From: a virus
Lineage: Duplodnaviria; Caudoviricetes
Length of the DNA stretch: 58,006 nucleotides
Virus record (IMG/VR): IMGVR_UViG_3300033407_000015
Span: 1 to 58,006 of that record
Direction: 5' to 3' (one strand)
The notes beneath the pieces were generated by a model. It saw only the letters and a list, made by a program, of their open reading frames with translations. It was not told the DNA's origin and did no database searches. Shown here piece by piece: positions 7,344-33,653 of the stretch. Position 1 is the first letter of the stretch. Every line of letters begins with the position of its first letter. The position numbers were made by a program, and so were the translations under genes.

Positions 7344-7346
7344 CCA

Positions 7347-10117: not shown

Positions 10118-10126
10118 GAGGCATCT

Positions 10127-11989: not shown

Positions 11990-11997
11990 GAGGAAAC

Positions 11998-13083: not shown

Positions 13084-13086
13084 TAG

Positions 13087-15015
13087 ATGGCCGGCGTCTT
13101 TCCTACCGCTTCGAGTCCTACGGCTACAACCCCACCAGTAGTCTCCCCACCACCGGGTGTTGGGACCTTCCCCTCTATTGCGCTCTCCAACGAGTTTGTG
13201 AAGGTGCGTTGGTTCGAGCAGAATGTGGCCAAGGCAGTAAATCAGCGCTGGATTGGAATGCCTCGTGGTGTGTACTTGGGCTTTGACCCAGAGACCGTTC
13301 CGGGATCGCGCCTCGTCACCTTGGCTACAGACGCTCAGCAAAGCTTCTCGCTGCTGAAGGTCCCCTCCCGTGATGAGACGGTCATGGTCGACATCTTTAC
13401 AGGTGAAGACGTTGTGCTTGATTTCACGGCGCATAACGCCTGGCCGGTGTACGTGCTTGCGACGTCGTCCTACAAAACAGGATCACCTACGCAAGGCAAG
13501 ATCTTTACCCGCGCCTCAACTGCGAGTGCGATTGACGAAATCGTGATCTGCCGGGTAGATAAGGTCGGGGACGACCTAGTCATCGATGTAACGGAGCCGA
13601 CGAATAGGCAGCAGCCAGTTGCCTTTCAGACGCAGCCCTACGGTTATATGCCGGATGGGTCTATTGAGGATTTGAGCACAACCAACGCCATCGTATCTGA
13701 GGTCGTCGCCGCTCGTTCCTCGATCTATACAGGGCCGCACGGTGACCTAAAGACGCGTCTTGATGCCGATATGGGTGGAGCCGAGATGGCCGACCGGCTC
13801 GGGTTTCGACTTGCTCACCTGCTCTCTAATGTCCACCAAAATCGTAGTGGGACGGCACTGAACGTTTCTGGTTCCTTTACCGAGACGGGTCGCACCACGG
13901 CCCCTCTCCTTACCATCTCTTCTGGTGGCGGCGAGTCCGTTGAGGGGGCAATCACTGACGGCGTTAGGGGGGTTTGCTTTCTCGTCAACAGCACTACAAA
14001 GCAACGAATCATTAACGAGACGACCCGAGAACCAATCTATGGGCAACTCGCCTTCTCAACGGCTATCATCGGAGCGGGTAAGGAAGTTCACTTCGTCAAT
14101 GCTTCGGTCAGCGTCAATGGCAACGGGACGAACCCCTTTGGAGCACCGCTCGTAGAAGGCGATATTATCGCGGGCCCTGATGGCTTGTTCTACGAGATCA
14201 GTTCCATTGCTGACCCAGACAACGCCACGTTGGGCGCAGCATACCGTGGTGTCGATGACTTCATCTCGAACCCAGCGTTTCGGCGCTGGCAGATCTTCTT
14301 GTTTACTGTGTCGAGCGGCGTCTTCAATCTCGTCACGCCAACCAACGTGCAGTTTATCTTTCCGTCGTTCTTCCGTCTCGATCGTGCGATCTTCGACGGG
14401 AGCTTGCACATCAAACAAGACGGTGAGCGCCCTCAACTTCCAGTTGCTACTTCCGCGAGCGCCGGAAAGGCTCTCCTGGCAACCGATGGTGGTCTAGTTG
14501 GCTCGTTCCGTACCATTAAGGATACGGGAACCTCCATCGGGGCTGACATCCACACCTTGAACTTCCTCACCGGTGGCGCAGCAAACGCCGGCGCTGGTGT
14601 CGCCATCGTGTCTGTGCCTGGAGCTAAAGGCGCACCAGGTCCCTCCTCCAATCAAGGGCCCGACGGTCCAACAGGCGCGGCGGGCTTTGGTTACAGCCTT
14701 CAAAATTCCTTTGAGACTGGACCGGAGTCGGGAGACACAAGCACAGCGGTAGGACCCGTTACCGTGTCCTACACGCATGACTGGACCGTACCGTCTTCAA
14801 CCCCTACGTTATCCGCCCAATCGCCTAGGTCTTACGCTCATGTCTCTGGAGGATGGAGCATCATCAATGGCTTCCACGGGGGCGGATTTGAGCGGATTCA
14901 CATCGACTCTTTGGCTGATGACGGCGCCAACAACACTCGGATCATCTACCGTATTCAGCCCGACGGTAACCTGAGCAATACAACCATTCAGTGCTATATG
15001 GGAGCGTCGCAGTGA
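13087..15015 (+). CDS. ~630-aa paralog family copy 3, collagen-like segment
   Basis: GMPRGVYLGF, YGYMPDGSIE, GAKGAPGP..GPDGPTGAAG. Confidence 0.65.
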   Translation: MAGVFPTASSPTATTPPVVSPPPGVGTFPSIALSNEFVKVRWFEQNVAKAVNQRWIGMPRGVYLGFDPETVPGSRLVTLATDAQQSFSLLKVPSRDETVMVDIFTGEDVVLDFTAHNAWPVYVLATSSYKTGSPTQGKIFTRASTASAIDEIVICRVDKVGDDLVIDVTEPTNRQQPVAFQTQPYGYMPDGSIEDLSTTNAIVSEVVAARSSIYTGPHGDLKTRLDADMGGAEMADRLGFRLAHLLSNVHQNRSGTALNVSGSFTETGRTTAPLLTISSGGGESVEGAITDGVRGVCFLVNSTTKQRIINETTREPIYGQLAFSTAIIGAGKEVHFVNASVSVNGNGTNPFGAPLVEGDIIAGPDGLFYEISSIADPDNATLGAAYRGVDDFISNPAFRRWQIFLFTVSSGVFNLVTPTNVQFIFPSFFRLDRAIFDGSLHIKQDGERPQLPVATSASAGKALLATDGGLVGSFRTIKDTGTSIGADIHTLNFLTGGAANAGAGVAIVSVPGAKGAPGPSSNQGPDGPTGAAGFGYSLQNSFETGPESGDTSTAVGPVTVSYTHDWTVPSSTPTLSAQSPRSYAHVSGGWSIINGFHGGGFERIHIDSLADDGANNTRIIYRIQPDGNLSNTTIQCYMGASQ

Positions 15016-15608
15016 GACATTACTTTGGCTATGACATCAACGGCGACCTCCTCGCCATCGAAACCTATGGTCCTGCTGGCTGGCCCACCGATCATTGCAT
15101 GGAGGATCCGCAATGCGTCAAGGACTCGGTTTGTTCTCTGCGCGAGAGCCGCGCAAAGAACGCCCCAGGCATCATCGATTGGGTGCTTTATGACTGCCCT
15201 TGTAATGCAGGGCAAGGCGCCATTCTGAAAAACTGCACCTGCGTTAACTCGAAATACGGCGTGAGCTATGTAGACGTTGCGTCAAGGGTGCTGAGACCTA
15301 AGCCAATGACGACGGTCTACATCGACTCCGTCGCGATTCAGTCCGGTGACATTATTACCAGAGACCCAGGGACTCAGATGACTCTCAAAGTGACCGGTAA
15401 TGGTGTTCCAGACGGTACGGTAGTTAGGTGCGTGCAAAAAGGTTCGGTCGATCTCGTTCTTGACGACGAGTGGGAATTGGAGTTCTCGAACGGCGTATCG
15501 ACTACCAAGGTGCTGACTGCGCCCGCACAAGGTGCAAGAGGCATTGTCAACGTCTCAGGCACCTTGATTCGTCCGGTGATCTTCAGTGTCCGGGGCTTTG
15601 CATCCTAG
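15012..15608 (+). CDS. Cys-rich hypothetical protein
   Basis: Likely GTG start overlapping the previous stop (GTGA); C..C..C, CPC and CTC clusters. Confidence 0.55.
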   Translation: MRHYFGYDINGDLLAIETYGPAGWPTDHCMEDPQCVKDSVCSLRESRAKNAPGIIDWVLYDCPCNAGQGAILKNCTCVNSKYGVSYVDVASRVLRPKPMTTVYIDSVAIQSGDIITRDPGTQMTLKVTGNGVPDGTVVRCVQKGSVDLVLDDEWELEFSNGVSTTKVLTAPAQGARGIVNVSGTLIRPVIFSVRGFAS

Positions 15609-15610
15609 GT

Positions 15611-16435
15611 ATGAGCAACATCGACGATGTTCTGCCACTTCCAGATCAAGTTGAAGTTCGACTTCTAGCGCCCAACATGATGGTCCTTAGGGGTGTCGTT
15701 CCAGAATGGCGCGACGAACTCATTCAGATCTCTGAAAAGATCCAGTGCTGGAAGCACTCTGGGCAGATCCTTCCTAATGGTAGTGAGAGCTACAAAGACG
15801 CGTTCCGAACGAGTCGTAGCTTCATCGTCTCCGCGTCTCATCCAGACTATGGGCCGTGTTTGCGGCGCTTCGAAGAGGCGCTCTTTAAGGTATTCCATAC
15901 CGGCGTAACTGCTTACAAGAATCACAATCAGTTCTTGACTGTTACGCACGACTCAGGCTTTGAGATGCTGCGGTATCAAGAGGGTCAACGCTTTGGGATT
16001 CATACAGACGCCATTTTGGGCCGGCAAGAGGGCTTTCGGCAGCTTAGCGCGGTGGTTTATCTCAATGATGGCTATGAAGGCGGTGAGACCTACTTCCCTC
16101 GTCAGCAGATCAGGTTCAAGGCACAAGCAGGGGACCTAATCCTTTTCCCTTCAACTTTCTGCTACCCTCATGAATCCTTACCAGTGACGAAGGGCATAAA
16201 GTATGCCATCGTGACCTGGTTCATGGCCTATCCAAAGATCCAAGAAGACTCAGCCAAGGAAGAACAACATGGTGAAGCAGAAATTTATGGTGATCCTGCT
16301 GGGGTTGCTCCTGACAACGGGGTGTGCCTGCACGAACCCCCCGGAAGCAGATCTCCTGAGGGAGAACCGGAAGCACCTGATCGAGAGTCTTCGACCCGCA
16401 CTGGTCGATTCGCTAAACAGGGCGCAGAAGCCTGA
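15611..16435 (+). CDS. 2OG-Fe(II) oxygenase, prolyl-4-hydroxylase-like
   Basis: LRY..G..F..HTD...LSAVVYLNDGYEGGETYF...GDLILFPS...YPHES.PV..G.KY (HxD...H triad); ATG at 15611. Confidence 0.9.
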   Translation: MSNIDDVLPLPDQVEVRLLAPNMMVLRGVVPEWRDELIQISEKIQCWKHSGQILPNGSESYKDAFRTSRSFIVSASHPDYGPCLRRFEEALFKVFHTGVTAYKNHNQFLTVTHDSGFEMLRYQEGQRFGIHTDAILGRQEGFRQLSAVVYLNDGYEGGETYFPRQQIRFKAQAGDLILFPSTFCYPHESLPVTKGIKYAIVTWFMAYPKIQEDSAKEEQHGEAEIYGDPAGVAPDNGVCLHEPPGSRSPEGEPEAPDRESSTRTGRFAKQGAEA

Positions 16436-17746: not shown

Positions 17747-18105
17747 TCCGCCAACACCTCCTAGTCGAAACGCTCATCTCCAGGATCATCACCAGACGTG
17801 GTCCGGTGTTCATGTATCGCCGCCCGCAAGGTCCGCCTGTTACGAGTGATGAGACCCTGGATAGGTGGCTGCATAAGACGACGCAGACGTTTGACTTTGC
17901 GCCGATTTTTAATGGAGACCAACACCAAGCAAGGATCGTTGCCGAGCGCTACTTAGAGCACCTCAAGAAGAATGCTCAACGAGAGGGCATGGACTGGAGC
18001 GCGCTCACCATACGTCTCAATCAAGTTAGTCCTTTTCTTCGACGAGGACTTCAGACCTTCTTCTCGTTTTTCGACGCGGCAACTCGAACTCGAACTCGAA
18101 GCTGA
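17743..18105 (+). CDS. Hypothetical protein
   Basis: ATGA overlap upstream, TGATG overlap downstream; N-terminal LLVE. Confidence 0.55.
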   Translation: MIRQHLLVETLISRIITRRGPVFMYRRPQGPPVTSDETLDRWLHKTTQTFDFAPIFNGDQHQARIVAERYLEHLKKNAQREGMDWSALTIRLNQVSPFLRRGLQTFFSFFDAATRTRTRS

Positions 18106-18794
18106 TGCTTGGTGCCGAGACCCTAATCTCAACGCTCGCTGGTCCGCGCCCCATTAGTGATTTTATCGATAAAGGGCCGATCCGCGTTTTCACCTGGGAC
18201 GGCGATCGAATCACCGTTGGTGAGGTTGAGATCAAAGACTCGACGCGTCTAGTCATCCCTTACTGCGTCGAACTTGACGACGAGACGAAACTCGTTCTTT
18301 GCTCAGAAACTATGCTCTTGCTCAAAACTGGAGCACCTCGCTTCCCTGAGCAGCTTGCACCTGAGGCTTCACTGCTGCCCCTCTACACGAAGGCAGACGT
18401 GAAGGGCTATCCGATCTATCAGGAACCTGGAGAGTGGCACAGAGCGGCTCTGACGCCCAGTGACAGGAATCGGTGGCGACGCGTCAGCCGAATGGTTGCT
18501 GAATGGAAACTTGGAAGGAGATGTGCTCCTGGAGACATAGTTTCCTACATTTCCAAGGACCGAATGAATTGCGCTCCTGAGAACCTCAGGATTCATCAGA
18601 AAGATCGAAAGAAGACCGAAAAGAAGGTCGAATTTGCCGAACCGCTTTTTGAGGCTCAACGATTCATCAACAAGTACAACCATAAGATTACCCGCGTCTA
18701 TCTTGACACTAGCCGTAGTTTGCTGTCGATTAGAGGCTTAGGAACAGCTAACCTATCGGTTGGCGGAGTCTTCGTCTCCGTAGACTCGGAGTAA
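18105..18794 (+). CDS. Free-standing degenerate intein (Hint plus HNH remnant) homologue
   Basis: Colinear with portal inteins 5/6 (MLGAET~CLSGET, SLLPLY~SLMPLY, NHKI~NHKV, GGVFVS~AGVFVHN); catalytic residues replaced. Confidence 0.75.
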   Translation: MLGAETLISTLAGPRPISDFIDKGPIRVFTWDGDRITVGEVEIKDSTRLVIPYCVELDDETKLVLCSETMLLLKTGAPRFPEQLAPEASLLPLYTKADVKGYPIYQEPGEWHRAALTPSDRNRWRRVSRMVAEWKLGRRCAPGDIVSYISKDRMNCAPENLRIHQKDRKKTEKKVEFAEPLFEAQRFINKYNHKITRVYLDTSRSLLSIRGLGTANLSVGGVFVSVDSE

Positions 18795-18797
18795 CTT

Positions 18798-21700
18798 GTG
18801 GCAATCCAAGACAGAGCCCTTCGCGCTCTCCGTCGCGTATTCGGTGACGACAGAGACGAGCGGGAGCGGGCCGAAAGTCCTAGCGCCGACGCACTTCGTC
18901 ACGCGCCATCTTCCACTTACGCCATCTGGGGGCGTGAGGACATCGGCGGACTGCTCTCCGTCTCCCAGAATCTCATGGACCGCTATGCGGACTATGAGGC
19001 GATGAACGACTACCCAGACATTCGTTGCTTTACGGGCGACATGAAGGTCTACGTTGTCGCGGAAAACAACGTCATCGTTCCAACACCGATCAAAACCATC
19101 TGTGAAAGTACAGAAACTTTCCAGATCCTCGCCTACGACCAAAAGAAGAAGTCGTTGGTCTCGGTTGCTGCGGAGCATCCTCGGATCTCCGGACGCAATG
19201 CTCCTGTTCTTCGTCTCGAACTCAGCAACGGCGAAACGTTGCGCTGTACGCCTGAGCACAAGATCTTCTGCGTAGAGCCGCGCCCAGGCTATGTCGAGGC
19301 TAAAGAACTCAAGAAGGGTGCCTTCATCGTCGGCGCTCGTGCTGGCTTCGAGACTGAAACCAAGAGCATGCTGACCGTCAAGACAGCCGGCGGAGTGTGG
19401 TTGAACGAGGACCCTATTCCTGACAGCTTTGCGTCAGAGGTTTATGACATCACGACCTCGACGCACAATTTGCTGGTCAACGGCGTCATCTGCCACAACT
19501 CAGCTTTCCATTACTTCGCCAACGACGCGACTCAACCCAACATGGACAACGGGCGGGTGTGTTGGATCCAGAGCCCGGACCAAGCCGTCGTAGACATGGG
19601 CGACACGCTCATCAAGCGCCGCCTTCGTCTTGAAGACGATCTCTTCTCCATTGCCTACTCGCTCTGCCAATACGGAAACTGCCTGCCGGGGTCGTCGAAG
19701 GTGTGGCTGGAAGGCGCGGTCGAAGAGATTTCCAATGTGACTGTTGGAGATCGTGTCGTCCTCTACTCTGCGGGTGAGGCTACAACTGCGCCTGTTCTTG
19801 CTGTGCATAACAACGGTGTCAAGCCTGTCTTTCGTCTCCGCACCAAGCACCGCGAGATTCTCGCTACTGCCGAACACCCTTTCTTTGTAGACGGTCCGGA
19901 TGGACCAATATGGAAGAATCTGGAGAATCTCCGGAAGGGTGACGGGATCTTCATTTGCACGCAGAGCCCGCCAAACGGTGAACCGTTTTCGCTTGCACAC
20001 CTAGTCCCAGCAGTCAGCGATCTCACGCTACCTGAAAGAATCACGCCCGAATTCTGTCGTCTCTACGGTTATGCCGTTGCGGACGGTTGGATTACCGACC
20101 ATGAACTGAACAAGTCTGTCGGTATTTGCTCAGGCAACAAGCCGGAGCATGCCAGCTACTACCTGAGTCTGGCACAGTCCTTTGCACCCAGAAGCTATCT
20201 GACCGAGGCTGACGGAACCTTCAAGCTCCATATTGGATCGGTAGCGTTTGCAGATCTCTTCAAGAAGCTGGGATGGTCTAACGGGGCGCATGTCAAGCGA
20301 ATGCCAGGGTGGATTTGGGATCTACCAGACGAGCATCGTGAGGCGATGCTTCAAGGAATCAGCGATGGTGATGGCCATACAACCAGAACGTCCACAGACA
20401 ATCACACCAGAGTCTCCATCGAACTCTGCAACCGCGCCTTGGTCGAGGACATCAAGACGCTCGCTGACGGCCTTGGTTACAAGTGCGGAAATGTTCGCTA
20501 CAGAAAGCGGACTGGTGTTGCCTCCTACAATCAGATCGGGGATCCGATCTATGCAGGTGAATCGTGGACGATCACCTACTACGACGCTCGACTGCCACAG
20601 CCCTTCGCGGTTGAGCGTATTCTCTCTATCGAGGAAGCAGGAGAGGAAGAGGTTTTCGACCTCACCATCGACCACCCTCAGCATAACTTCGTTGCAGATG
20701 GTGTCGTCGTCCACAACTGCTTCGAAGAGGTTCTCGTCACTGAGAACGGCGTCGTCGGGCTCAACAACCTGGCAGCACCCACTATGCGTCGGGTGGAGAA
20801 GCTCAACGGCAGCCTGATTGGTTACGTCCAAGACGTGACCGGTCGCTTCACGGCCAATCAAGACGAACTCCGTCGAATGCTTGCTGGTGCGCTCACCATT
20901 CCCAAGCACGTTGCGCTCTTCGAGGACTGGCAGGTTGCACATTTCCGTTCGCGCTCAACGACTAGACGCTCGCCCTATGGTGTGTGTATTCCGGCTGACG
21001 GAGTCGTGGAGACCGTTGAAGGACCGAAGCCCATCATCGACGTGAAGGTCGGAGATCGTGTCTTCTGTCGTCATGCGGGGATGCTTAGGACCACCAAGGT
21101 TATTGACCACGTCTCCAATGGAGTGCGTCCAGTCTTCCGCCTCAAGACAACCCATCGGGAGATTCGCGCAACAGGTAATCATCCGTTCTTGGCCCGCGTA
21201 GGAGAGATCAATCGCTGGAAGCCACTCGAAGAACTTCGTGTTGGTGACGAAATCGTCGCCGCGACGGCACTACCAGGTCTTGGCAACAGGCCGCCCCTCG
21301 GGCGTCGCCTTCGGTCGTTCAACGATGAGGCGTCAGTTCGTCTTACTGAGGCAGGCATCACTGCGATTCGCAGCGCCAGTTCGCGTGGCAAATACGGCCC
21401 CCGCGATGCTGGCCTAAGGAAGGTATTCGCGGATCGAGGACTCACCAGAAGTCAAATGAGCGACATCCTGGCGGGGGCGTCCTCGCTATCCCTAGGCACC
21501 TACAAGGCGATTCTTGGCAACCTCGGCCTTGTTGTCGCTGTAGGTGACTTCGAGGTCTACCACGGTCCTGGGGCTGTCGTTCCGACGCTGCCTGATTTCG
21601 TGGATGAGTCGTTCTGTCGGTTCTGGGGATTCATGCTGGGAGACGGCTGGCTTACCGATGAGCAGGTCTACTTCGCTCGCGGCGTCGACGAGGACGTCAA

Positions 21701-24700
21701 CGAGTTTTATGAGAGCTACCTCCAATCCTTCGGGTTGGCCCCCAGTCGAACAAATGACAGCACGCAATGCTTCGTCAACTCCACTGTTCTCGTCAGGACC
21801 ATGCGCGAACTCGGCTGGATCAACGGCTGCAAGGAAAAGCGGATTCCATCATGGGTCTTTGCGCAGGATGCATCACTGCGTCAGGCGCTCGTTCAGGGGC
21901 TTCTCGATTCTGATGGGTGGCGATCCCAGCAGACGGGCCCCGAACGACGCCATATTGAATTGGCGAATCGTGATCTCGTACGTGACATCAAGATACTGGT
22001 CGACGGCCTTGGCTGGACTTGCGGGAACATTCGAGAACGTGCTCCTCGCGAGGGCATGATTCGCAAGGGTCTTGTTCACTACCACAACGGAAAGGTGCAA
22101 GAGGAAGATCAGATCATTAAAGGCGGACTTACCTACACCATCACTTGGCATGAAACTTCGCTCGGTGAAGACAACTTCGCTCTCGAAAAAATTGAGAGCA
22201 TCGAGTTTGACTGCGACGAGGAAGTGTTCGACATCGGTGTTGCTGACACCGATCACAACTTCCTCTGCGATGGATTGGTCGTTCATAATTCCGTCGGAGA
22301 AGGCGCACGATGGATCTGGAAGCGTCTCGTCATGCTTGAAGATGCGGTCATGATCTACAAGCTGTGTCTTCGTGGCGACTCACAGATCTGGACCCCCGAA
22401 GGACGGAAAGCGATCAAGGATCTCAACGAGGGCGAAGAGGTCTACTCTTTCACGACCGAAGATCACCTCAAGAAGTCCAAGGTCGTCTACAAGAAGCACA
22501 ACGGTCAGGACAAGATCTATCGTGTCTACGGTCCGACGCGGGAGTTGTTCGCTAACAAGACCCACCCTGTTCTGGTCGAGTTGACCACACCCGAGGGTGC
22601 AAGGATACTCGAATACGTTGAGGTCCAGAACATCCGCCCCGGTTTCCATCGCTTCGTTACTCCTAGGAAGAACGACGATGATTACATTGATATCGGCGAG
22701 ACGGAGAGTAATGCTCTAGCGCTGGGCGAGTTACTGCAAGGGGAGAGGCTACCGGGTCGTGTTTTCCAAGCTTCGCGAGACATCAAGCGGCTGGTCTTGC
22801 GTGGTCTCACGAACTCCTTGAATGAGGAGACAGTTTTTTATCGAGCCGGTAGAAGGGCTGTAGACGACCTCCGAGACCTGGCTATGCAGGCTGGGTTCCT
22901 GGTCACCCTCCCTCTCGAAGAAGAAGATGACCGGTGGGTTGTCGCTCTCACATTTTGTGACGCGTCCGCATCGGCTACCATCGATGACATCGAGGAAGTT
23001 GGAACAGACGACATCTGGGATATCGGCGTCGAAGCAGATGAGCACAACTTTGTCGCTAACGGTGTGGTCGTACATAACACTCGGTCTCCTGCAAGGTACG
23101 CGTTCTACGTGGACGTCACCGACGTTCCCCCGAACCGCGTCGAGTCCTTCTTGAAGCGCGCTAAGCGTGACCTCAAGAAGAAGAAGATGGTCAACCCCAA
23201 TAACAACTTCCTTGACATGCGCTACAACCCGCTCTGTTTGTCGGGTGAGACCAAGATTCCACTTCTCGATGGGTCCGAAAAGACTCTGCTAGAGATGGTT
23301 GAGGCACACGAACGTGGCGAGGAGCAGTGGATCTATTCAGTCGACGTCGAAGATGGGAACAAGCTCGTCCCAGGCAAGGTTGTCTGGGCTGGTGGAACCC
23401 GAAAGAACGCGCAGCTTCTCAAGATTACTCTCGATAATGGCAAGTCGATTAAGGTCACGCCCGACCACAAGATGATTCGCCGCAGCGGTGAATTCTCTGA
23501 GGCACAGACGCTCAAGGTCGGCGACTCGTTGATGCCGTTCAGACAGCGCGTTAATCAGATTAGGACGGGTGGCCCTGCGGGTTACGAACAGATCTACGAC
23601 CCCTCCATCAAGAATTACGTGTTCACCCATCAGATGGTGGCTATAGACCTTGGTATCAAGACCAAGACAAGTGGCTACGTCATTCATCACGAAGACTGCA
23701 ACAAGCGGAACAACAATCCACGGAATCTAACGGAAATGGAATGGGGTGCGCACAAAGCGCTCCACCACAAGCTCTCGTGTGCCGCAGCAGAAAAGCTGAT
23801 CGCCTACAATCAGACGAACAAGGCGCGCGCCGAAACTGCGGCAACGAACCGCAAATACGACAAGCCTGCGCTAATGCGAGAAGCGATCACGTCGGAGATT
23901 CGTGAGAAGCAGAAGAAGGTCGCTAAGAAGTCGAAGACGGAATTCTGGCGGGACAAAGAGAAGGCAGCGCAAGCCTCCGAGAAGATGCGCTACGTCTATC
24001 CGGCTGCCTTCGTCGATGCCATTCGTCAGGTCATCGATGAGCAGGGGCCAAAGGTCGGCGCTCCAACTATTGCGCGCATCGCAAACGAGCGTGGACTGGT
24101 CGAACTTCTAATCGAGGCGAACCCAGACAAGGTTGGGAAGCTCAAGAACGTCCACCGCGACATGATTCGCTGGATGTGCCATAGCCTCGGCTTCAGAAAC
24201 TTCAAAGAGTTCAAGACAGCGGAACCCATTCCTCACAATCACAAGGTCGCGAAGATCGAATGGCTTGAAGAACGTGAAGACACCTTTACACTCACCGTTG
24301 ACGTAAGTCATACGTTCGCAACCTCTTGCGGTATCTTTGTAAAGAATTCCAACGACGAGGATTTCTTCATTGCGGTCCGGGACGGGCGTGCCCTCTCACG
24401 CGTCGAAGTGCTCTCTGGTCCGGATTACCAGAACACGGATGATGTCGAATACTTCCAGCGCAAGCTCCACGGCGCACTTATGGTGCCTCGCGCTTACATG
24501 GGGCAGGACGCGCCTATCCAAGGACGCGCTATCCTCTGTCTGTCTGGAGATACCAAGGTTCCGCTGCTAGATGGACGCACGCGGACGTTAAGAGAACTTT
24601 CTCAGGAGTATGGGCCAGAGGATGAGTTCTATGTCTATACAAGCGGCCCCGATGGAAAGATCACTGCTGGGCGCGCTCATTCGCCTCAGGTCACACGTCC

Positions 24701-26597
24701 CAATGCGGAAGTCTGGGAGATCGCACTCGACAATGGTCGAACAGTGCGAGGAACTCCCGATCATCCTTTCATGCTGCGCGATGGCTCCTACCGTCGTCTC
24801 GATGAGTTAAGTCCAGGCGATTCGTTGATGCCGCTCTACCGACGAGATTCGGAAAAGTCTCGCGATGGTATGGGTGGCTATGACATGCATCTCTGCCCGG
24901 TCACCGGTAAGTGGCGGTTTTCGCATCGTGCTGTTGCCAATTGGAAGTGGCGTGGGCGAGTCCTCAAGAGGGAAGGTCGCGTTATTCACCACGAGAACTT
25001 CGATAAGCGCAATAACGATCCGCGCAATCTAGGAGATCCGTTGGTTGAGGAGCACCTTCAGATCCATCGTGAGCACGCAGAGAAAACCATCCTGCGACCG
25101 GATGTCCGCGCTAAGGCCATTAAGAACTCACAATGGTGGACGCAGAGCGAGGAGTGCGCACAACTCTGTCGCGAGAATCTACACCGAGCGCGTAGTCCCG
25201 GGGGCGGTCAACGAGCTTGGTGTGAATCCGATGAGCACCGTCGTCTCAAGTCGGCGCAGATGAAACGTCAATGGGCTAAGCAGAGCAGCAAGCTCCGCTT
25301 GCGCACTCAGACTGATGAGTTCCGCAAGACATCATCGAAAAAGATGAAGGAGTCCATTGCGCTTGGCAAGATCAAGGTGGGTGGCGCAGACAATGTTAGG
25401 TGGCGTCATGACGCCGAATTTGCACGGCTGGTAGATGTAGCCGAGAGCTATCGTTGCACGTCGATGGGTGATCTTACAAGGTGGACCGGTTACTCATCAT
25501 GTTTGATCTATCGCCTACTTGAGGGCGAGGGTCTCACCTTCAGGGAGTTTGCCGATCTACATCTTGTCTATGGTTACGACCCGGGCGGGCACAAGAATCG
25601 GCGAGCCAAGAAGGTGGCTAAGGAACACCAGAGTGCAATTGAGTCGGTTGGTGTGCCAGGTAATCACAAAGTCGTCAGCATCAAGAAGTTGGACATCCGC
25701 GAAGACTGCTATGACTTCGTTGTGGATGGAACCCATAACTACGCGTTGGACGCAGGTGTCTTCGTCCACAACAGCAACGAAGATGTGAGGGCCGCGCGCG
25801 TCAGTCTTCAGATTCAGAAGGAACTGAAGAACGGTATTGAGCGCATCATCCGCACAGACCTCGCAGCCCGTGGCCATGGCATGCCCTGGAACGTAGACCT
25901 CGACGTCATGATGACTGTGCCGTCGAACATCTACGAGTTGGCGGCTATGGAAGTGAAGAACGCCCGAGCCGACTTCGCCGCCCGTATCCAGCCCTACGTG
26001 TCTATGCGTTGGCTTCTGGAGAACGTATTCAAGCTCTCTGACGACGAGATTCGTGAAGTCGAGAAGCAGCGCCAGCGAGAGGCTAATCTCGCTGATGCCA
26101 TGGGTATGGACCCATCATTCTCTGCTTTCACCGGCGGTCGTCCTCCCGACCAGGAACCGGAGATGGGTCTGGGCGCAGGCGGTGATCCTGGCGCAGCAGG
26201 TCTACAAGAGGTTCCTGGTGGCGGAGGTGGTGGACTTCAGGAAGTCCCAGGTAGTGGGCTTCAAGAGGTTCCTGGTGCCGGGCTTCAGGAAGTTCCAGGT
26301 AATGGACTCGAAGAAGTACGTCCTGGGAAGAATACCTCTCGTAATGAGTGGCGTGCTTACGACCGTCGTCGGCGTCTTGAGGAGAATCGCTACCGCGAAT
26401 CGCGCCAAAACCATCAGAAGTTGGTGGATATGATCGGAAATCTTCAACAAAATGATGCGGGGTTTGCCCGCCGGTTGGATGAAACAACTTCCTTCCTCAA
26501 GGACTTCAAGTCCGCGACCATGAAACGCGTCAATGGGCGTCTAGTAAGCACTCCTTCGGCAGGAGCGGGTCGACCCACTGCTGGTGGTGGCGCGTAG
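18798..26597 (+). CDS. T4 gp20-like portal protein precursor with six inteins (2599 aa; ~639 aa spliced)
   Basis: Joined exteins give gp20 motifs PYG.S..ARWIWKRLVMLEDAVMIY.L.R.P.R..FYVDV, EDFF, DVEYFQRKLHGALMVP; located upstream of the protease and MCP. Confidence 0.92.
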   Translation: MAIQDRALRALRRVFGDDRDERERAESPSADALRHAPSSTYAIWGREDIGGLLSVSQNLMDRYADYEAMNDYPDIRCFTGDMKVYVVAENNVIVPTPIKTICESTETFQILAYDQKKKSLVSVAAEHPRISGRNAPVLRLELSNGETLRCTPEHKIFCVEPRPGYVEAKELKKGAFIVGARAGFETETKSMLTVKTAGGVWLNEDPIPDSFASEVYDITTSTHNLLVNGVICHNSAFHYFANDATQPNMDNGRVCWIQSPDQAVVDMGDTLIKRRLRLEDDLFSIAYSLCQYGNCLPGSSKVWLEGAVEEISNVTVGDRVVLYSAGEATTAPVLAVHNNGVKPVFRLRTKHREILATAEHPFFVDGPDGPIWKNLENLRKGDGIFICTQSPPNGEPFSLAHLVPAVSDLTLPERITPEFCRLYGYAVADGWITDHELNKSVGICSGNKPEHASYYLSLAQSFAPRSYLTEADGTFKLHIGSVAFADLFKKLGWSNGAHVKRMPGWIWDLPDEHREAMLQGISDGDGHTTRTSTDNHTRVSIELCNRALVEDIKTLADGLGYKCGNVRYRKRTGVASYNQIGDPIYAGESWTITYYDARLPQPFAVERILSIEEAGEEEVFDLTIDHPQHNFVADGVVVHNCFEEVLVTENGVVGLNNLAAPTMRRVEKLNGSLIGYVQDVTGRFTANQDELRRMLAGALTIPKHVALFEDWQVAHFRSRSTTRRSPYGVCIPADGVVETVEGPKPIIDVKVGDRVFCRHAGMLRTTKVIDHVSNGVRPVFRLKTTHREIRATGNHPFLARVGEINRWKPLEELRVGDEIVAATALPGLGNRPPLGRRLRSFNDEASVRLTEAGITAIRSASSRGKYGPRDAGLRKVFADRGLTRSQMSDILAGASSLSLGTYKAILGNLGLVVAVGDFEVYHGPGAVVPTLPDFVDESFCRFWGFMLGDGWLTDEQVYFARGVDEDVNEFYESYLQSFGLAPSRTNDSTQCFVNSTVLVRTMRELGWINGCKEKRIPSWVFAQDASLRQALVQGLLDSDGWRSQQTGPERRHIELANRDLVRDIKILVDGLGWTCGNIRERAPREGMIRKGLVHYHNGKVQEEDQIIKGGLTYTITWHETSLGEDNFALEKIESIEFDCDEEVFDIGVADTDHNFLCDGLVVHNSVGEGARWIWKRLVMLEDAVMIYKLCLRGDSQIWTPEGRKAIKDLNEGEEVYSFTTEDHLKKSKVVYKKHNGQDKIYRVYGPTRELFANKTHPVLVELTTPEGARILEYVEVQNIRPGFHRFVTPRKNDDDYIDIGETESNALALGELLQGERLPGRVFQASRDIKRLVLRGLTNSLNEETVFYRAGRRAVDDLRDLAMQAGFLVTLPLEEEDDRWVVALTFCDASASATIDDIEEVGTDDIWDIGVEADEHNFVANGVVVHNTRSPARYAFYVDVTDVPPNRVESFLKRAKRDLKKKKMVNPNNNFLDMRYNPLCLSGETKIPLLDGSEKTLLEMVEAHERGEEQWIYSVDVEDGNKLVPGKVVWAGGTRKNAQLLKITLDNGKSIKVTPDHKMIRRSGEFSEAQTLKVGDSLMPFRQRVNQIRTGGPAGYEQIYDPSIKNYVFTHQMVAIDLGIKTKTSGYVIHHEDCNKRNNNPRNLTEMEWGAHKALHHKLSCAAAEKLIAYNQTNKARAETAATNRKYDKPALMREAITSEIREKQKKVAKKSKTEFWRDKEKAAQASEKMRYVYPAAFVDAIRQVIDEQGPKVGAPTIARIANERGLVELLIEANPDKVGKLKNVHRDMIRWMCHSLGFRNFKEFKTAEPIPHNHKVAKIEWLEEREDTFTLTVDVSHTFATSCGIFVKNSNDEDFFIAVRDGRALSRVEVLSGPDYQNTDDVEYFQRKLHGALMVPRAYMGQDAPIQGRAILCLSGDTKVPLLDGRTRTLRELSQEYGPEDEFYVYTSGPDGKITAGRAHSPQVTRPNAEVWEIALDNGRTVRGTPDHPFMLRDGSYRRLDELSPGDSLMPLYRRDSEKSRDGMGGYDMHLCPVTGKWRFSHRAVANWKWRGRVLKREGRVIHHENFDKRNNDPRNLGDPLVEEHLQIHREHAEKTILRPDVRAKAIKNSQWWTQSEECAQLCRENLHRARSPGGGQRAWCESDEHRRLKSAQMKRQWAKQSSKLRLRTQTDEFRKTSSKKMKESIALGKIKVGGADNVRWRHDAEFARLVDVAESYRCTSMGDLTRWTGYSSCLIYRLLEGEGLTFREFADLHLVYGYDPGGHKNRRAKKVAKEHQSAIESVGVPGNHKVVSIKKLDIREDCYDFVVDGTHNYALDAGVFVHNSNEDVRAARVSLQIQKELKNGIERIIRTDLAARGHGMPWNVDLDVMMTVPSNIYELAAMEVKNARADFAARIQPYVSMRWLLENVFKLSDDEIREVEKQRQREANLADAMGMDPSFSAFTGGRPPDQEPEMGLGAGGDPGAAGLQEVPGGGGGGLQEVPGSGLQEVPGAGLQEVPGNGLEEVRPGKNTSRNEWRAYDRRRRLEENRYRESRQNHQKLVDMIGNLQQNDAGFARRLDETTSFLKDFKSATMKRVNGRLVSTPSAGAGRPTAGGGA
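19026..19499 (+). mobile_element. Portal intein 1 (mini-intein, 158 aa)
   Basis: CFTGD...CTPEH...ICHN|S; no endonuclease. Confidence 0.9.
19680..20717 (+). mobile_element. Portal intein 2 (LAGLIDADG, 346 aa)
   Basis: CLPGS...TAEH...LYGYAVADG...LQGISDGDG...VVHN|C. Confidence 0.9.
20985..22289 (+). mobile_element. Portal intein 3 (LAGLIDADG, 435 aa)
   Basis: CIPAD...TGNH...FWGFMLGDG...VQGLLDSDG...VVHN|S. Confidence 0.9.
22365..23078 (+). mobile_element. Portal intein 4 (238 aa, eroded LAGLIDADG remnant)
   Basis: CLRGD...NKTH...ALALGELLQG/LVLRGLTNS remnants...VVHN|T. Confidence 0.88.
23235..24347 (+). mobile_element. Portal intein 5 (HNH-containing, 371 aa)
   Basis: CLSGET...TPDH...VIHHEDCNKRNNNPRNL...FVKN|S (penultimate Lys). 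Confidence 0.9.
24537..25772 (+). mobile_element. Portal intein 6 (HNH-containing, 412 aa)
   Basis: CLSGDT...TPDH...VIHHENFDKRNNDPRNL...FVHN|S. Confidence 0.9.
26199..26327 (+). repeat. GLQEVPG tandem peptide repeat (4 exact plus 1 degenerate) in the portal C-terminal tail
   Basis: GLQEVPG x4 then GLEEVRPG; codons have diverged synonymously. Confidence 0.9.
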
Positions 26598-26714
26598 TTT
26601 CCGACCTAAAAAGTTGAGGAAACTTCAAAGAAAGTTCGATCTTCCTGTCATAGATAGTTGACGGGTATAGATGTAGATCATAAACATAGGTATAGCGAAG
26701 GTCATAGGAAACCA

Positions 26715-28766: not shown

Positions 28767-30635
28767 ATGACGACCAACACAATGAGTCCACAGGTGGAGC
28801 AGCGCTTCCGCGCTAGGGCATCCACTCGTCGGCCTCTGGTCGACAACATGCTGGTGGAGTCCGAGGGCTTCACCAAGATGACTGTCCTGGCCGAAGACTC
28901 TCAGCGCAAGGGTGTTCTGATTGTCGAAGGTCTGGTCGGTATCTGTGGAAAGGCGACGAAGAACCTTCGTCTCTACACAGAATCGATCATGAAGCGGGAG
29001 ATCAAGCGTCTCCAGGAGCGGATCGACGCACGATCTCTTCTGGCTGCGGTGGATCACCCAAACGACGGTAAGTCACGTATTCGTGAGGCCGGCGCTATCT
29101 GCGTTGGTCTCCGATGCGAAGCTGATGGTCGGATCATCGGTAAGTACGAGATCGTCGAAGACTCGACGGGTGGTCGTGACCTCGCCGCGTTCCTGCGTGC
29201 AGGTGCCTCCATCGGTATGTCTTCGCGTGGCCTGGGCTCGACCTCAGTCAACATGGAAGGTGTTCACGTCGTTGGCGAGGACTTCAAGCTTCACGGATTT
29301 GATTTCGTCGCTGATCCAGCCTGTGAGACGGCCTACCCCACCTTGGTGTCTGAGGACATTGATGCGGCTACGGTCGATGAGAACCAACTTCGCGCAACCT
29401 TCAGTAACCTTGTCGAGCAGATCGAAGATCGCGCTCGTCAAGCCGGTGCTGAGATCGCTGAGGAAGAGGTCCGGGCTCAGGTCGAAGAGGAGTTCAAGCT
29501 GGCGCTCGATGAAGCCGGCGGCAAGCTTCGCGAGGACATCAAGCTTCAGGTGGAGTCTGAGATCCGCGAGCAGCTTCGCGAGGACTTCTCAGTCAAGTTG
29601 CTGAAGGCGCTCCAAGAGCAGCGGACTCAAATCGAGTCGGTCGTTCGTTCCGAGCTTCTCTCCGACCCGAAGGTTGGTGCCGCTAAGCGCTTCATGGAAG
29701 ACCTGGCAGCGAAGCTCGTCCCGTTCGCTCCTGCTCCCGACCAGCAAGTTGTCATGGATGACTTCGAGAGCAAGCTCTTGGCGTTGCGCGAAGAGGTCGA
29801 GCAGAACGAGGCTGCGGTCCACGCCAAGGACGGCGTCATCAATGAGATGTCTGAGCGCGTGGAACAAGCCGAGCAGGCCGCACGATCGCTAGGCTACAAG
29901 CTCTACATTGAACGGTGTCTTGAGGGTCGTGAAAACGCCGCTCAACTCCGTGAGATGATTGGGATCCCTGACGGCACTGAAGCTGCCGACGAGCTTCGTG
30001 ATCGCGTCAGCGCTGTGCTGCAACAGGTCACAGAGGCAGAAGATCAGGCAATGACCCAGGCGCAGGCCCAGGTCAAGGTCAAGGAGCACAAGGCCGATCT
30101 GGCGCGCAAGAAGGCAGAGGTCGCAACCGAAGAGTTCGATCGCTTCCGCGTCGAGATGGAACAACGCTTCGAGCGACTCTCAACTCGCATGGGCGCACAG
30201 ATTCACGAAAAGGACCGAGCCCTCTCTGAGGCTCTCGGCCATATCGAGAAGCTGGAAGGCACGGTCAGCAAGTCTCGCCGTCAAGTCCAAGAGGCTGATC
30301 TACATGCTTACGCGGCTCGCCGCGTGATCGGTCACCCTCGTGCAAACGACATCCTCAAGCTCGTCGAGAGCGGACGGGTGACTTCCAAGGGCCAGGTCCA
30401 GCAACTCGCAGAGCAGTGGGACAACGCTGCAAGCGAGCCTGGTGGAGTCAGTGAGCGCATTCGTCGCTCACTTGGACGCGGTCGTGAGGCACCTACAGAG
30501 GATGACCAACAGCGTTTCAGTCAACTAATGGAAGGCCAACAGTCCATTCCCGGACTTGAGGGCTTCGATACCACCATGGGAGAACTCCGCGCGCTGTCGG
30601 GGATTGACCATGATTCTTTCAATGGCAGATTCTAA
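28767..30635 (+). CDS. T4 gp21-like prohead protease fused to a long coiled-coil scaffold (gp22-like)
   Basis: N.R.Y, VDHP, IGMSSRGLGS and FDFVADPA motifs, followed by ~430 aa of E/Q/A-rich coiled coil. Confidence 0.9.
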   Translation: MTTNTMSPQVEQRFRARASTRRPLVDNMLVESEGFTKMTVLAEDSQRKGVLIVEGLVGICGKATKNLRLYTESIMKREIKRLQERIDARSLLAAVDHPNDGKSRIREAGAICVGLRCEADGRIIGKYEIVEDSTGGRDLAAFLRAGASIGMSSRGLGSTSVNMEGVHVVGEDFKLHGFDFVADPACETAYPTLVSEDIDAATVDENQLRATFSNLVEQIEDRARQAGAEIAEEEVRAQVEEEFKLALDEAGGKLREDIKLQVESEIREQLREDFSVKLLKALQEQRTQIESVVRSELLSDPKVGAAKRFMEDLAAKLVPFAPAPDQQVVMDDFESKLLALREEVEQNEAAVHAKDGVINEMSERVEQAEQAARSLGYKLYIERCLEGRENAAQLREMIGIPDGTEAADELRDRVSAVLQQVTEAEDQAMTQAQAQVKVKEHKADLARKKAEVATEEFDRFRVEMEQRFERLSTRMGAQIHEKDRALSEALGHIEKLEGTVSKSRRQVQEADLHAYAARRVIGHPRANDILKLVESGRVTSKGQVQQLAEQWDNAASEPGGVSERIRRSLGRGREAPTEDDQQRFSQLMEGQQSIPGLEGFDTTMGELRALSGIDHDSFNGRF

Positions 30636-30647: not shown

Positions 30648-32093
30648 ATGTTCCAGGCACGTTCAATGATTGCCGAGAGTGCAGAAGGGTGCGCCCTCGC
30701 CGATCACGGTATGGTTCGACAGTACGTCAACAAGTGGGCTCCCCTGCTTGAGGGCATCGAGTCCGAACTCGACAAGTTCACCCCTCGCGGGCAGGCCCAG
30801 TACGTGAAGTCCATCGCGGCTTTCATGTTGGAGAACCAGGCTCGACACCTGAAGCGGCTGTCGGAAGAGACGCGGGCCTTGTCGGTCGGTCCCTTCCTCA
30901 AGTTCGTCTTCCCCGTCATTCGACGGGCCGCCGTGCGCTTGGTCGCGACGCAGATTGCGTCCGTCCAGCCCATGACTGGTCCCATCGGTGGCGTGGCCTT
31001 CTATCGTCCGCGCTACGCGACGGACAAGGGCCAGGTCGTAGCGGGCCAGGAGATGAACAAGACGTTCAACAAGTGGTACTCGTCGAACTTCATCGACGGC
31101 GAGGCGATTGGTACCGGTAACGGCACCAACACCGTCTTCTCGACGAACCTGAAGTTCCCTCGGGTTCTCTCAGGCACGATGCGTGTTCTCGTTCGCACCG
31201 CTGGTACCCGTCAGACGGGCACCCTGGTCGGAACTGACAACGGCGCTGGCGGTCTGACCGCTGTTGCTGGCGGGCCTCTCGCTGGCGGCACGATCAACTA
31301 CCAGGCCGGTCAGCTTCAGGTCAACTTCGCCGCCGCTCCCGCGACGACCGACGAAGTCCTGATCGAGTACAAGTACGACAACGAGTTGAACCCTCGGATC
31401 CCCGAGGTTCAACTGGACATCGCGATCCAGGAGATCCGCGCCGAGAGCCGCAAGCTCAAGTCGCTGGCCTCCGTCGAGGCTGCGGACGACCTCCGCGCTC
31501 TCTGGGGTCGTGACATCGACGCCGACCTCGTTGCTCACATGAGCGACGAAATGACGGCGGAGATCGACCGCGAGATCGCCGGCACGGCGCTCAACGCAGT
31601 CGAGGGTCTGGCCGTTCTGGACTGGGACCGCGCGACTCCTTCGGGCGTCAGCGATCCTGAGCACCTCCAGTCGCTCGTGATCCGCATGTCCGAGTCGAGC
31701 CACATCGTTCACCGTCGCACCCAGCGTGCGCCGACGAACTGGTGCATCACCTCGTCCGAGATCGCCGCCCTTCTGGAGACCATGCCCGGATTCGCTTCCG
31801 TGGACGATGGTCACGTCTACCAGGGAGGCATCATGAAGGGTGGTGTCCTCAACCGGAAGTGGGTGATCTACGTCGATCCGCTCTTCCCGCAGGACGAGAT
31901 TCTCATGGGTTACCAGGGTCCTTCGATCCTGGACACGGGCTTGATCTACAGCCCTTACGTGCCCATGGAGATCACGCCCAACTTTGTCGATCCAAATGAC
32001 TTCAGCCTGCGCCGCGCGATCCGCACGCGTCACAAGATCACCTTGATCCGGCCGGAGTTCTTCTCGAAGGTCAAGGTCTCGAACCTGAACTAG
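30648..32093 (+). CDS. Major capsid protein, T4 gp23-like
   Basis: KWAPLLEG, LENQ, SVQPMTGP.G..FY, AESRKLK, EIDRE, YSPYVP, PNDF..R..I.TR. Confidence 0.95.
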   Translation: MFQARSMIAESAEGCALADHGMVRQYVNKWAPLLEGIESELDKFTPRGQAQYVKSIAAFMLENQARHLKRLSEETRALSVGPFLKFVFPVIRRAAVRLVATQIASVQPMTGPIGGVAFYRPRYATDKGQVVAGQEMNKTFNKWYSSNFIDGEAIGTGNGTNTVFSTNLKFPRVLSGTMRVLVRTAGTRQTGTLVGTDNGAGGLTAVAGGPLAGGTINYQAGQLQVNFAAAPATTDEVLIEYKYDNELNPRIPEVQLDIAIQEIRAESRKLKSLASVEAADDLRALWGRDIDADLVAHMSDEMTAEIDREIAGTALNAVEGLAVLDWDRATPSGVSDPEHLQSLVIRMSESSHIVHRRTQRAPTNWCITSSEIAALLETMPGFASVDDGHVYQGGIMKGGVLNRKWVIYVDPLFPQDEILMGYQGPSILDTGLIYSPYVPMEITPNFVDPNDFSLRRAIRTRHKITLIRPEFFSKVKVSNLN

Positions 32094-32165: not shown

Positions 32166-32252
32166 TCGTTTAGTGATAACTCACAAGAATCACTCAAGGG
32201 TATACACAGATTACGCATTGACCGGACGACTTAATTGCGCTACCCTTCGGCT

Positions 32253-33653
32253 ATGAAAAAAGAGGACAGTGCAATAGTCCGAATACGCAACGAAGCTGCT
32301 AAGGGAGTATCGGTTAGAGCGTTGGCAGTTAGCCATAGATTGTCAGTGGGGGCTATCCAGAAGATAGTGACGGGGAAGACCTACAAGCAGGTGGGCGGGC
32401 CTATCCGCGAAATAGGAACTAAAGAGAAATCGAGAGCCGGAAGCTGTAACCCAAACAAGAGCCTCACCCTTCGACAAGTCATTGATATCCGCAATAAGCT
32501 CAATCAAGGAAGCCCTAGGTCTAAGCTCGCCAGAGACTATCAGGTCAGTCTTTCTACAGTTGATAAGCTGGCGACCGGCAAAAGCTGGAATTTGCCTTAC
32601 GCGATTGGAAACGCAACGACGGTATTCCCTGATGAAGAACTCATCAGGATCAACCTCAAGGAAGGACGACCCGACCGTGGGTCTGAGGAAGAGACGCTCC
32701 TCGTTTCTCGGGTCGAGGCGGCGTTCAAAGTGTTTGGATACCCCTACCGTCGTTGGTCTAGTGCTCAGTTTGATGGGTATCTAGAACGCATCAGAGAGCG
32801 CGCTCCTGCTGTTGATTCGAACTCAGTAATTGATGGTGGGTCGAGCGTCGGACTGCGGCTGTTGAATGCGTTTCACCCGTCGATTGACCATATCAATCGA
32901 AAAGGGGCTAAGTCTCCAGTAGAAGTCTTCAACGATCCTGTGGCCCGCAGAGGCGCCATTATCGATCAAATCAGATATGGAAACAGGCTCTCGCCGGGCG
33001 GAATCAGAAGCGCCCTGACAGAGACTTCGGGGTCAACACAAATCTCATCGTTTCGTCCGACGATTGCTTACGCGCTGATTAAGCACTATGGCGCAAGCTC
33101 GCTTCTGGATCCGTGCGCCGGCTGGGGAGGGCGCATGGTTGGGGCAATCGCCGCTGGAATCTCCTACGTCGGAATAGACCCTAGCGCAGGAACAATAGCT
33201 GGTAACGAGGGTTTCTTAGTCGAGCTAAGCCGCTCAATCACGCCTGAGCAACCCGTGGCGCTTCTCAATGAATGCGCTGAAGACGTGCTTGGCTCTAATC
33301 GAGACATCGGCAAATTTGATCTAGTATTCACAAGTCCTCCATACTTTGATTTAGAGCACTATTCAACTGATCCACGTCAAAGCTACCTTCGGTATCCGAA
33401 CCTGGAACTATGGTCGCGAGAGTTCTTGCAGGTAATGCTTGAGGGAAGCGCCTCTCGTCTTAATTCAGGTGGGCGAGTAGGGATCAATACATTTGATAAA
33501 TTGTCAGAGGTGGTCTTGACTGCCGCAGACAAGGTAGGTCTAACACTCGTTGAAACGCTGCGGATAGAGTTCCCGTCGCGTAGATGGCAAAGAGCTTCTG
33601 GTAATCATGTCAGATCCGAGCCGATATTCATCTTTCAGAGGTCCAACGCATGA
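32253..33653 (+). CDS. Amino (N4-C/N6-A) DNA methyltransferase with two N-terminal HTH-like repeats
   Basis: SAM motif LLDPCAGWGGR; catalytic FTSPPY; repeated IR....G.S...LA..Y.VS...I.K...GK(T/S)(Y/W). Confidence 0.85.
   Translation: MKKEDSAIVRIRNEAAKGVSVRALAVSHRLSVGAIQKIVTGKTYKQVGGPIREIGTKEKSRAGSCNPNKSLTLRQVIDIRNKLNQGSPRSKLARDYQVSLSTVDKLATGKSWNLPYAIGNATTVFPDEELIRINLKEGRPDRGSEEETLLVSRVEAAFKVFGYPYRRWSSAQFDGYLERIRERAPAVDSNSVIDGGSSVGLRLLNAFHPSIDHINRKGAKSPVEVFNDPVARRGAIIDQIRYGNRLSPGGIRSALTETSGSTQISSFRPTIAYALIKHYGASSLLDPCAGWGGRMVGAIAAGISYVGIDPSAGTIAGNEGFLVELSRSITPEQPVALLNECAEDVLGSNRDIGKFDLVFTSPPYFDLEHYSTDPRQSYLRYPNLELWSREFLQVMLEGSASRLNSGGRVGINTFDKLSEVVLTAADKVGLTLVETLRIEFPSRRWQRASGNHVRSEPIFIFQRSNA

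Follow-up and report, generated by a model that had tools for sequence, protein, structure and literature searches.

A total of 58,006 bp from an uncultured soil phage was used for the analysis. This stretch, hereafter the window, is the whole of IMG/VR record IMGVR_UViG_3300033407_000015; the record is linear and about 21% complete as estimated by CheckV, and because 58,006 bp represents only that share, the phage genome is roughly of jumbo size. The window carries a head-portal gene of the T4 gp20-like type whose precursor contains six inteins. The gene (18798..26597, + strand) starts with a GTG codon located 4 nt past the stop codon of the upstream gene and continues for 2599 codons and a stop codon, with no internal stops. 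The inteins account for 1960 of the 2599 amino acids (aa) (75.4% of the precursor), and the seven exteins sum to 639 aa. The N-terminus of the precursor agrees with the N-termini of the portals from L009, a syntenic sister phage in IMG/VR, and P0003, a more distant relative encoded on a 154-kb contig.

Analysis of the whole precursor with Pfam revealed six stretches matching the Intein_splicing family (PF14890; E 1.8e-79, 265 bits) and three pieces matching Portal_T4 (PF07230; E 8.7e-27, 94.4 bits against a cut-off of 22.9). Among PHROGs families, the portal protein phrog_213 matched with E 6.4e-25, and HNH families matched as well. A DNA search of the 7.8-kb gene against phage GenBank records gave no match. 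Intein boundaries were read from the motifs and then checked with hidden Markov models (HMMs) built from inteins of the family, which found six N-terminal and six C-terminal splicing modules in the precursor. The inteins are 158, 346, 435, 238, 371 and 412 aa long, and the exteins 76, 60, 89, 25, 52, 63 and 274 aa. An earlier sequence-only reading of this DNA had given the same lengths and an intein share of about 75%, and all of these values proved exact.

Each of the six inteins shows recognisable blocks A, B, F and G. The histidine of block B, whose motif is named TxxH, is present in all six and the threonine in five. Asparagine is the terminal residue in six of six and forms a terminal HN in five, and serine, cysteine or threonine is always found at the +1 extein position. 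The sequence-only reading had described the nucleophiles as Ser, Cys and Thr; this description fits the +1 residues (S, C, S, T, S and S for inteins 1 to 6) and fails at the intein N-terminus, where cysteine was found in six out of six.

Intein 1 (19026..19499, +; aa 77-234) is a mini-intein of 158 aa with Cys1 and the junction HN|S; it scores 51.3 bits against PF14890 and has no endonuclease domain. LAGLIDADG-type inserts are found in intein 2 (19680..20717, +; aa 295-640; 346 aa; Cys1 and HN|C; PF14890 52.3 bits) and intein 3 (20985..22289, +; aa 730-1164; 435 aa; Cys1 and HN|S; PF14890 48.1 bits). Profile matches of these inserts are weak, with Hom_end at 24.2 bits (above its cut-off of 21.1) and LAGLIDADG_3 at 19.4 bits (below its cut-off of 22.5) in intein 2, and LAGLIDADG_3 at 16.9 bits, under the cut-off, in intein 3; LAGLIDADG motif-like strings are visible in the translation of both. 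The two inteins are 36-40% identical over their whole length (E 7e-44), and intein 2 shares 78.6% identity with its P0003 counterpart. Intein 4 (22365..23078, +; aa 1190-1427; 238 aa; Cys1 and HN|T) contains a degraded endonuclease. Alignment to the P0003 allele, which is a full LAGLIDADG form of 442 aa, revealed that its first LAGLIDADG motif is deleted and that the second half is kept without its acidic residues.

Intein 5 (23235..24347, +; aa 1480-1850; 371 aa; Cys1 and KN|S; PF14890 59.6 bits) carries an HNH-type insert, matched by phrog_7545 (E 2.8e-15) and by HNH_3, the latter at 30.1 bits in the scan of the whole protein and 23.9 bits in that of the intein alone (cut-off 24.8). The evidence for the HNH-like insert of intein 6 (24537..25772, +; aa 1914-2325; 412 aa; Cys1 and HN|S; PF14890 62.1 bits) is weaker, consisting of phrog_20891 at E 6.9e-6 and zero Pfam HNH matches when the intein was scanned alone. 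Intein 6 is 76% identical to the intein at the same site in the portal P0006. Inteins 5 and 6 are 27-28% identical to each other over the full length (E 3e-38), and intragenic spread was considered as an origin of this pair and of the pair formed by inteins 2 and 3. For inteins 5 and 6 this candidate was dropped, as inteins of GyrB, helicases, ThyX and PF27249 proteins are 31-35% identical to intein 6 over its full length. Because non-portal inteins are at least as close to intein 6 as intein 5 is, the two are members of one large HNH-intein family. The mixture of stages that had been proposed for this gene is largely right: LAGLIDADG-type (inteins 2 and 3), eroded (intein 4), HNH or HNH-like (inteins 5 and 6) and mini (intein 1).

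Spliced product and insertion sites

Comparison of the exteins, all on the + strand, with the portal of L009 revealed 73 identical residues of 76 in extein 1 (18798..19025; aa 1-76), 58 of 59 aligned residues in extein 2 (19500..19679; aa 235-294) and 87 of 89 in extein 3 (20718..20984; aa 641-729). Every residue is identical in extein 4 (22290..22364; aa 1165-1189; 25 of 25), extein 5 (23079..23234; aa 1428-1479; 52 of 52) and extein 6 (24348..24536; aa 1851-1913; 63 of 63), and 255 of 273 are identical in extein 7 (25773..26594; aa 2326-2599). Extein 4, of 25 aa, corresponds to stem helix alpha5 of T4 gp20. Extein 6 covers the clip to channel-loop region and is the stretch that matches T4 gp20 best, and extein 7, which contains the long wing helix, the crown and the C-terminal tail, aligns to T4 gp20 residues from about 397 to 513.

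Splicing in silico gave a product of 639 aa that is collinear with the intein-free portal P0072, with 378 of 601 residues identical (62.9%); against the spliced P0003 portal, 549 of 623 residues are identical. The fold was tested by proxy on an AlphaFold model of P0072 that was built with 43 aligned intein-free portals and has a mean predicted local distance difference test score (pLDDT) of 75. The top Protein Data Bank match of this model in Foldseek is T4 gp20 (6uzc_E; E 1e-18, probability 1.0, TM 0.42-0.59), and 3ja7_A was matched with E 2.7e-14. Collinearity with P0072, the L009 portal and the P0072 model all point to a coherent gp20-type portal, as the sequence-only reading had expected of the spliced exteins, and the mature product is a predicted T4 gp20-like portal subunit of 639 aa.

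Insertion sites, designated a to f in the order of inteins 1 to 6, were placed by profile alignment to T4 gp20 and by the domain limits given in PMC4493910. Site d (IYKL|TRSP) falls where stem helix alpha5 ends in T4 (I276|T277), site e (YNPL|SNDE) in the clip domain (M328|S329), and site f (RAIL|SNED) approximately at I396|T397, where the tunnel loop ends, directly ahead of the bent helix alpha8. Helix 229-251 of the P0072 model corresponds to T4 residues 263-278, and site c lies four residues ahead of this alpha5-aligned helix. Since site c precedes the helix by four residues and site d is at its end, extein 4 is essentially the stem helix placed between two inteins.

Mapping of sites a to c onto T4 was dropped, as profiles made from 3 and from 43 intein-free portals align only from T4 residue 263 onward. 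Because of this start at residue 263, the secondary structure of the P0072 model was the sole means of placing sites a and b, which would lie in its N-terminal wing helices. In the family alignment, the columns next to the insertion sites are invariant or nearly so (G135, Y223/G224, R252 and L365). Insertion beside conserved columns is typical of inteins.

A 24-nt tandem repeat of 3.5 copies was found at 26225-26308, where it encodes GLQEVPG-type repeats in the C-terminal tail of the portal. The tail of the P0003 portal has a similar GLEEVPG run.

Intein occupancy in sister phages and in the portal clade

The sister phage L009 is close to the phage of the window in two genes of the head module located 2-4 kb downstream of the portal gene and syntenic in both phages. 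The major capsid protein (30648..32093, +; Gp23 family, E 1e-54) is identical at 471 of 481 residues and the prohead protease (28767..30635, +; gp21-like, Peptidase_S77) at 569 of 622. Its portal has 802 aa and contains intein 1 only, which is identical to intein 1 of the window at 143 of 158 residues. Sites 3-6 (c to f) are empty in L009 with identical heptapeptides on both sides, as at site 3, where RRSPYGV|SVGEGAR is contiguous, and exteins 2-6 are identical at 285 of 288 residues. The intein boundaries are confirmed by these empty sites with identical flanks. At site 2 the empty allele of L009 reads N|DFEEVLV, with aspartic acid where the invaded allele has the +1 cysteine; because of this aspartic acid, invasion of site 2 must bring its own nucleophile.

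Chimeric assembly was looked for in public sequencing runs. In run X2, from another soil sample and another study, a single contig of 27,138 nt spans positions 18700-26700 with 37 substitutions and no gaps, thus crossing all intein junctions; because all 8 kb lie on this one independent contig, the portal gene is not an assembly chimera. Run X1 is identical over the stretch and may itself be the source of the window DNA, and runs X3 and X4 hold small shares of the locus on short contigs. No RNA runs holding the locus were listed, which says nothing either way. All six inteins recur in unchanged order in the P0003 portal (2794 aa), which is 84% identical.

The substitutions in X2 are not evenly spread. 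A patch at 23102-23558 holds 34 of the 37 differences and is densest at 23213-23354 (28 in 142 nt); the rest of the 8 kb is 99.9% identical. The patch straddles the junction of extein 5 and intein 5 (23234|23235), which suggests a gene-conversion tract from a diverged allele.

A total of 3687 relatives were found by a HMMER scan with P0072, and among their 50%-identity representatives the best 150 were used for counting inteins. No intein was found in 42 representatives, one in 52, two in 31, three in 20, four in four, and six in one, the window protein. Thus at least one intein is present in 108 of the 150 and at least two in 56. The sequence-only reading had taken multi-intein structural proteins to be uncommon; in this portal clade they are ordinary. 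Long forms (1429-4549 aa) were sought by a word-indexed search; of its 47 matches 44 are portals, among which P0003 has six inteins, P0022 five and the others at most four. Among the relatives surveyed, six inteins are reached only by the window protein and P0003.

Mapping of 337 inteins from 222 portals to P0072 coordinates revealed 16 or more recurrent sites, near positions 60, 67, 76, 86, 131, 136, 182, 225, 250, 291, 295, 302, 312, 327, 330, 350 and 365. This set of 222 portals is non-random and enriched for long proteins by design, and the 150 representatives are the fairer census. Proteins P0046-P0048 (non-portal ribonucleotide reductase (RNR) and MCM intein proteins), P0091-P0092 (short non-portal fragments) and P0001 (a duplicate of P0002) were left out of the counts. 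The number of inteins at shared sites varies among close relatives (one, three, four or six). A single intein is present in L009, the closer relative, and six in the more distant P0003; this patchy occupancy supports mobility, as does the dense substitution patch of X2.

Site 250, the site of intein 4, is occupied by short inteins (at most 310 aa) in five portals and by long ones in 28. The short forms are accompanied by an intein at site 302 in five of five cases versus eight of 28 for the long forms (Fisher p 0.005, at least three of the five short forms being close relatives), a hint that short inteins of the intein 4 type may hitch-hike with the neighbour at site 302. At site 302 itself, the site of intein 5, the inteins of P0015, P0021, P0023, P0024, P0027 and others appear to start with proline or isoleucine in place of cysteine and to end with KN, SN or CN. 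These may be non-canonical inteins, class 2 or class 3-like, with boundaries uncertain by about two residues.

Another portal with three inteins, P0014 (1715 aa), bears the NCBI name 'MAG: portal protein [Dehalococcoidales bacterium]'. It may come from a prophage or from a phage contig binned with the bacterium, and may offer a host lead for the wider clade.

Predicted splicing and homing, and rival explanations

Class-1 inteins splice by an acyl shift at Cys1, transesterification to the +1 serine, cysteine or threonine, cyclisation of the terminal asparagine and an acyl rearrangement. We consider it likely that the six elements are canonical selfish inteins of this class which have built up in the gene of an essential structural protein needed in few copies. 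The analysis shows how the precursor is built, where its inteins begin and end, that its spliced product is collinear with intein-free portals, that selection is purifying, that an independent assembly supports the gene and that inteins are distributed in this clade as in a hotspot. From the sequence we infer that the inteins splice, that some of them encode active endonucleases and that particular properties of the portal make the load tolerable.

Translation would give a 2599-aa precursor from which each HINT domain excises itself by the standard route, in six independent cis-splicing events, and ligation of the seven exteins would give a 639-aa portal subunit able to assemble into the portal ring. 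Inteins 2, 3, 5 and 6, with their predicted LAGLIDADG or HNH endonucleases, would spread into intein-less portal alleles during co-infection. Intein 1, a mini-intein, and intein 4, with its half-deleted LAGLIDADG domain, would have no nuclease of their own and would persist by inheritance, possibly aided by co-conversion with neighbours located 25-89 codons away. Three properties of the portal may explain tolerance. Imprecise loss of an intein would be lethal in an essential protein, short and nearly invariant portal motifs would serve as stable homing sites, and with only about 12 portal copies per virion an imperfect six-fold yield (p^6) would be affordable.

Comparison of the ratios of non-synonymous to synonymous substitution rates (dN/dS) revealed values of 0.057 for intein 1 (against L009), 0.067 for intein 4 and 0.058 for intein 5 (both against the relative L013), and 0.01-0.04 for the exteins. 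These values indicate that the exteins and the three inteins measured are under purifying selection, which supports splicing indirectly. A freely decaying remnant was considered for intein 4 and rejected, as dN/dS of its middle remnant is 0.065 (with dS saturated), so that it does not drift freely.

Several observations weigh against the interpretation as canonical selfish inteins. The synonymous rate is about 1 or more, hence near saturation (and saturated for intein 5), which makes the dN/dS values rough, their direction being clear. Intein 4 scanned alone scores 27.3 bits against PF14890, short of the cut-off of 35.8 that the other five inteins exceed, and its block B reads NKTH, with asparagine replacing threonine; against the family HMMs it scores 82.8 bits at the N end and 50.1 bits at the C end, and the empty site of L009 settles where it begins and ends. 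Intein 5 has no penultimate histidine (KN); among relatives, KN is the norm at this site (45 of 76), and HN ends only three. The endonuclease assignments of inteins 2, 3 and 6 depend on weak profile scores. Lastly, a second, intein-free portal gene may exist elsewhere, as the record covers no more than about 21% of the genome.

Such a second gene is also part of an explanation in which the six-intein gene is an artefact, either a mis-joined contig or a decaying pseudogene accompanied by a working portal elsewhere. A linear, largely incomplete fragment of metagenomic origin invites this suspicion. Nevertheless, it is extremely improbable: the stretch is present from end to end, on one contig each time, in two assemblies that differ in sample and study (one of them, X1, possibly the source of the window), the 7.8-kb frame is open with all catalytic residues intact, and dN/dS is far under 1 in exteins and inteins alike. 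Furthermore, the portal genes of the window and of L009 share one syntenic position, ahead of those for protease and capsid protein, and P0003 is an independent relative with six inteins.

It is rather unlikely that the six-intein load serves the phage, whether as a nuclease battery against the portal alleles of co-infecting phages or as a splicing timer or quality gate on portal supply. If either version were true, structural genes, beyond replication enzymes, would be a major arena of virus-level intein selection. As a weapon, the portal-intein endonucleases would cut the intein-less portals of co-infecting relatives, and the load would be adaptive through marker exclusion. Four of the inteins have endonuclease-type inserts, free-standing HNH-type genes are numerous in the region (33650-35002, 47511-48131 and, with a weak match, 18105-18794), empty-site alleles co-exist in related soil phages, and the recombination-like patch of X2 lies at the intein 5 junction; endonuclease-driven marker exclusion in T-even phages (SegG, mobE) is cited in PMC10643990. 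None of this sets a weapon apart from plain homing by endonucleases whose activity is predicted from sequence, and the empty sites of L009 differ from the window flanks at several synonymous positions, so that they may not be cleavable. We regard a weapon as unlikely. A regulatory gate, as suggested by the sequence-only reading, appears very unlikely, and none of the results speaks for it specifically; here the splicing of one or more inteins would depend on redox state, temperature, metal ions or time and would thereby control the supply of mature portal and with it the start of head assembly. Cys1 in all six inteins and the +1 cysteine of intein 2 would make a redox-sensitive disulfide trap conceivable, and with extein 4 reduced to a single 25-aa helix between two inteins, the portal fold would be impossible before splicing; purifying selection on the inteins also agrees with a gate, although any intein that interrupts an essential gene should show it. 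However, L009, with a capsid protein 98% identical, manages with one intein, the clade includes intein-free portals (42 of the 150 representatives), occupancy is patchy and combinatorial as for mobile parasites, and no sensor feature was found. Selfish mobile elements fit better than a gate, because of the patchy occupancy, the endonuclease domains and the family-wide hotspot.

Known systems and genome context

According to PMC10710043, Prp8 of Anaeramoeba ignava contains five inteins, a number called remarkable there, the earlier maximum being four. The RNR of Trichodesmium erythraeum has four inteins (Liu et al. 2003, as cited in that paper). Searches of full-text literature, outside which lie most subscription journals and supplementary tables, found neither a protein with six inteins nor a multi-intein gp20 portal on record. 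Within the literature searched, the six inteins of the window portal are one above the highest published count found for a single protein. Prp8 resembles the portal in being a single essential protein with many canonical inteins at distinct conserved sites; it differs in being a eukaryotic spliceosomal host with five inteins, whereas the host in the window is a phage structural protein with six, making up 75% of the precursor. Haloarchaeal MCM has four intein insertion sites, and the same study poses the question of co-homing or interference between neighbouring inteins (PMC10643990). Like the portal gene, the RNR and MCM genes contain several inteins at closely spaced sites and raise the same questions of co-homing and of endonuclease degeneration and hitch-hiking. 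They differ in encoding cellular replication or nucleotide enzymes with four sites, in contrast to a portal family with 16 or more sites, six of them occupied at once in the window protein.

Inteins in portals are already on record for actinobacteriophages and prophages (bioRxiv 10.1101/2025.01.02.630785; PMC4760082 Table 3; PMC5050341), those of actinobacteriophages in five separate groups (bioRxiv 10.1101/2025.01.02.630785). The portals described in the available parts of these sources belong to IPR009279 or are SPP1 Gp6-like (COG2369), and no multi-intein or gp20 (PF07230) portal is mentioned in those parts. T4 gp20 (PDB 3JA7, 6UZC; PMC4493910) shares with the window portal PF07230, the fold of the intein-free homologue and the gp21/gp23-like neighbours; it differs in having no inteins and only about 20% sequence identity, with the N-terminal 236 residues unaligned by profile.

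The window portal is thus a record-count case of a known phenomenon and not a new kind of system, and its host belongs to the structural proteins and not to the replication enzymes. The intein-hotspot portal clade is previously undescribed within the literature searched and possibly matters more, as the gp20-like portals of environmental phages, from soil and other sources, have alleles with 0-6 inteins. These alleles form a natural series for the study of co-homing and interference between neighbours, hitch-hiking of endonuclease-less inteins, splicing order and the inefficiency tolerated in a low-copy protein. Six natural inteins in one protein, mutually compatible and predicted to splice in cis, may interest protein engineers. 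Gene callers and annotators will mislabel such proteins of 2.6 kaa as 'intein/homing endonuclease' and miss the portal.

The sizeable genes of the window are all on the + strand. A seventh intein of the window is carried by the large subunit of RNR (50459-54025, +; Ribonuc_red_lgC, E 1.3e-92), with a PF14890 match at 51536-51694 and a strong LAGLIDADG_3 match (E 5e-21). Free-standing genes of homing-endonuclease type are located around the head module at 33650-35002, 47511-48131, 32235-33653 and 18105-18794 (all +); they comprise one with two HNH_3 stretches and helix-turn-helix (HTH) domains, one HNH gene and one endonuclease/HTH-like gene, and the gene at 18105-18794, directly upstream of the portal gene, has a weak HNH match (phrog_959, E 3.9e-5). 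No tRNA genes were found in the 58,006-bp window. Other genes encode a CCA-adding/poly(A) polymerase-family enzyme (35125-36603, +), a fusion of Clp_N and MazG (48936-50126, +) and a 2OG-Fe(II) oxygenase (15470-16435, +). Positions 1-15000 (+) contain nine large open reading frames of 306-642 aa with no Pfam match, and one of the four scanned in PHROGs gave a weak tail-fibre match. The region presumably encodes a diverged tail or baseplate module, and at least the last three of its nine reading frames have homologues in L009.

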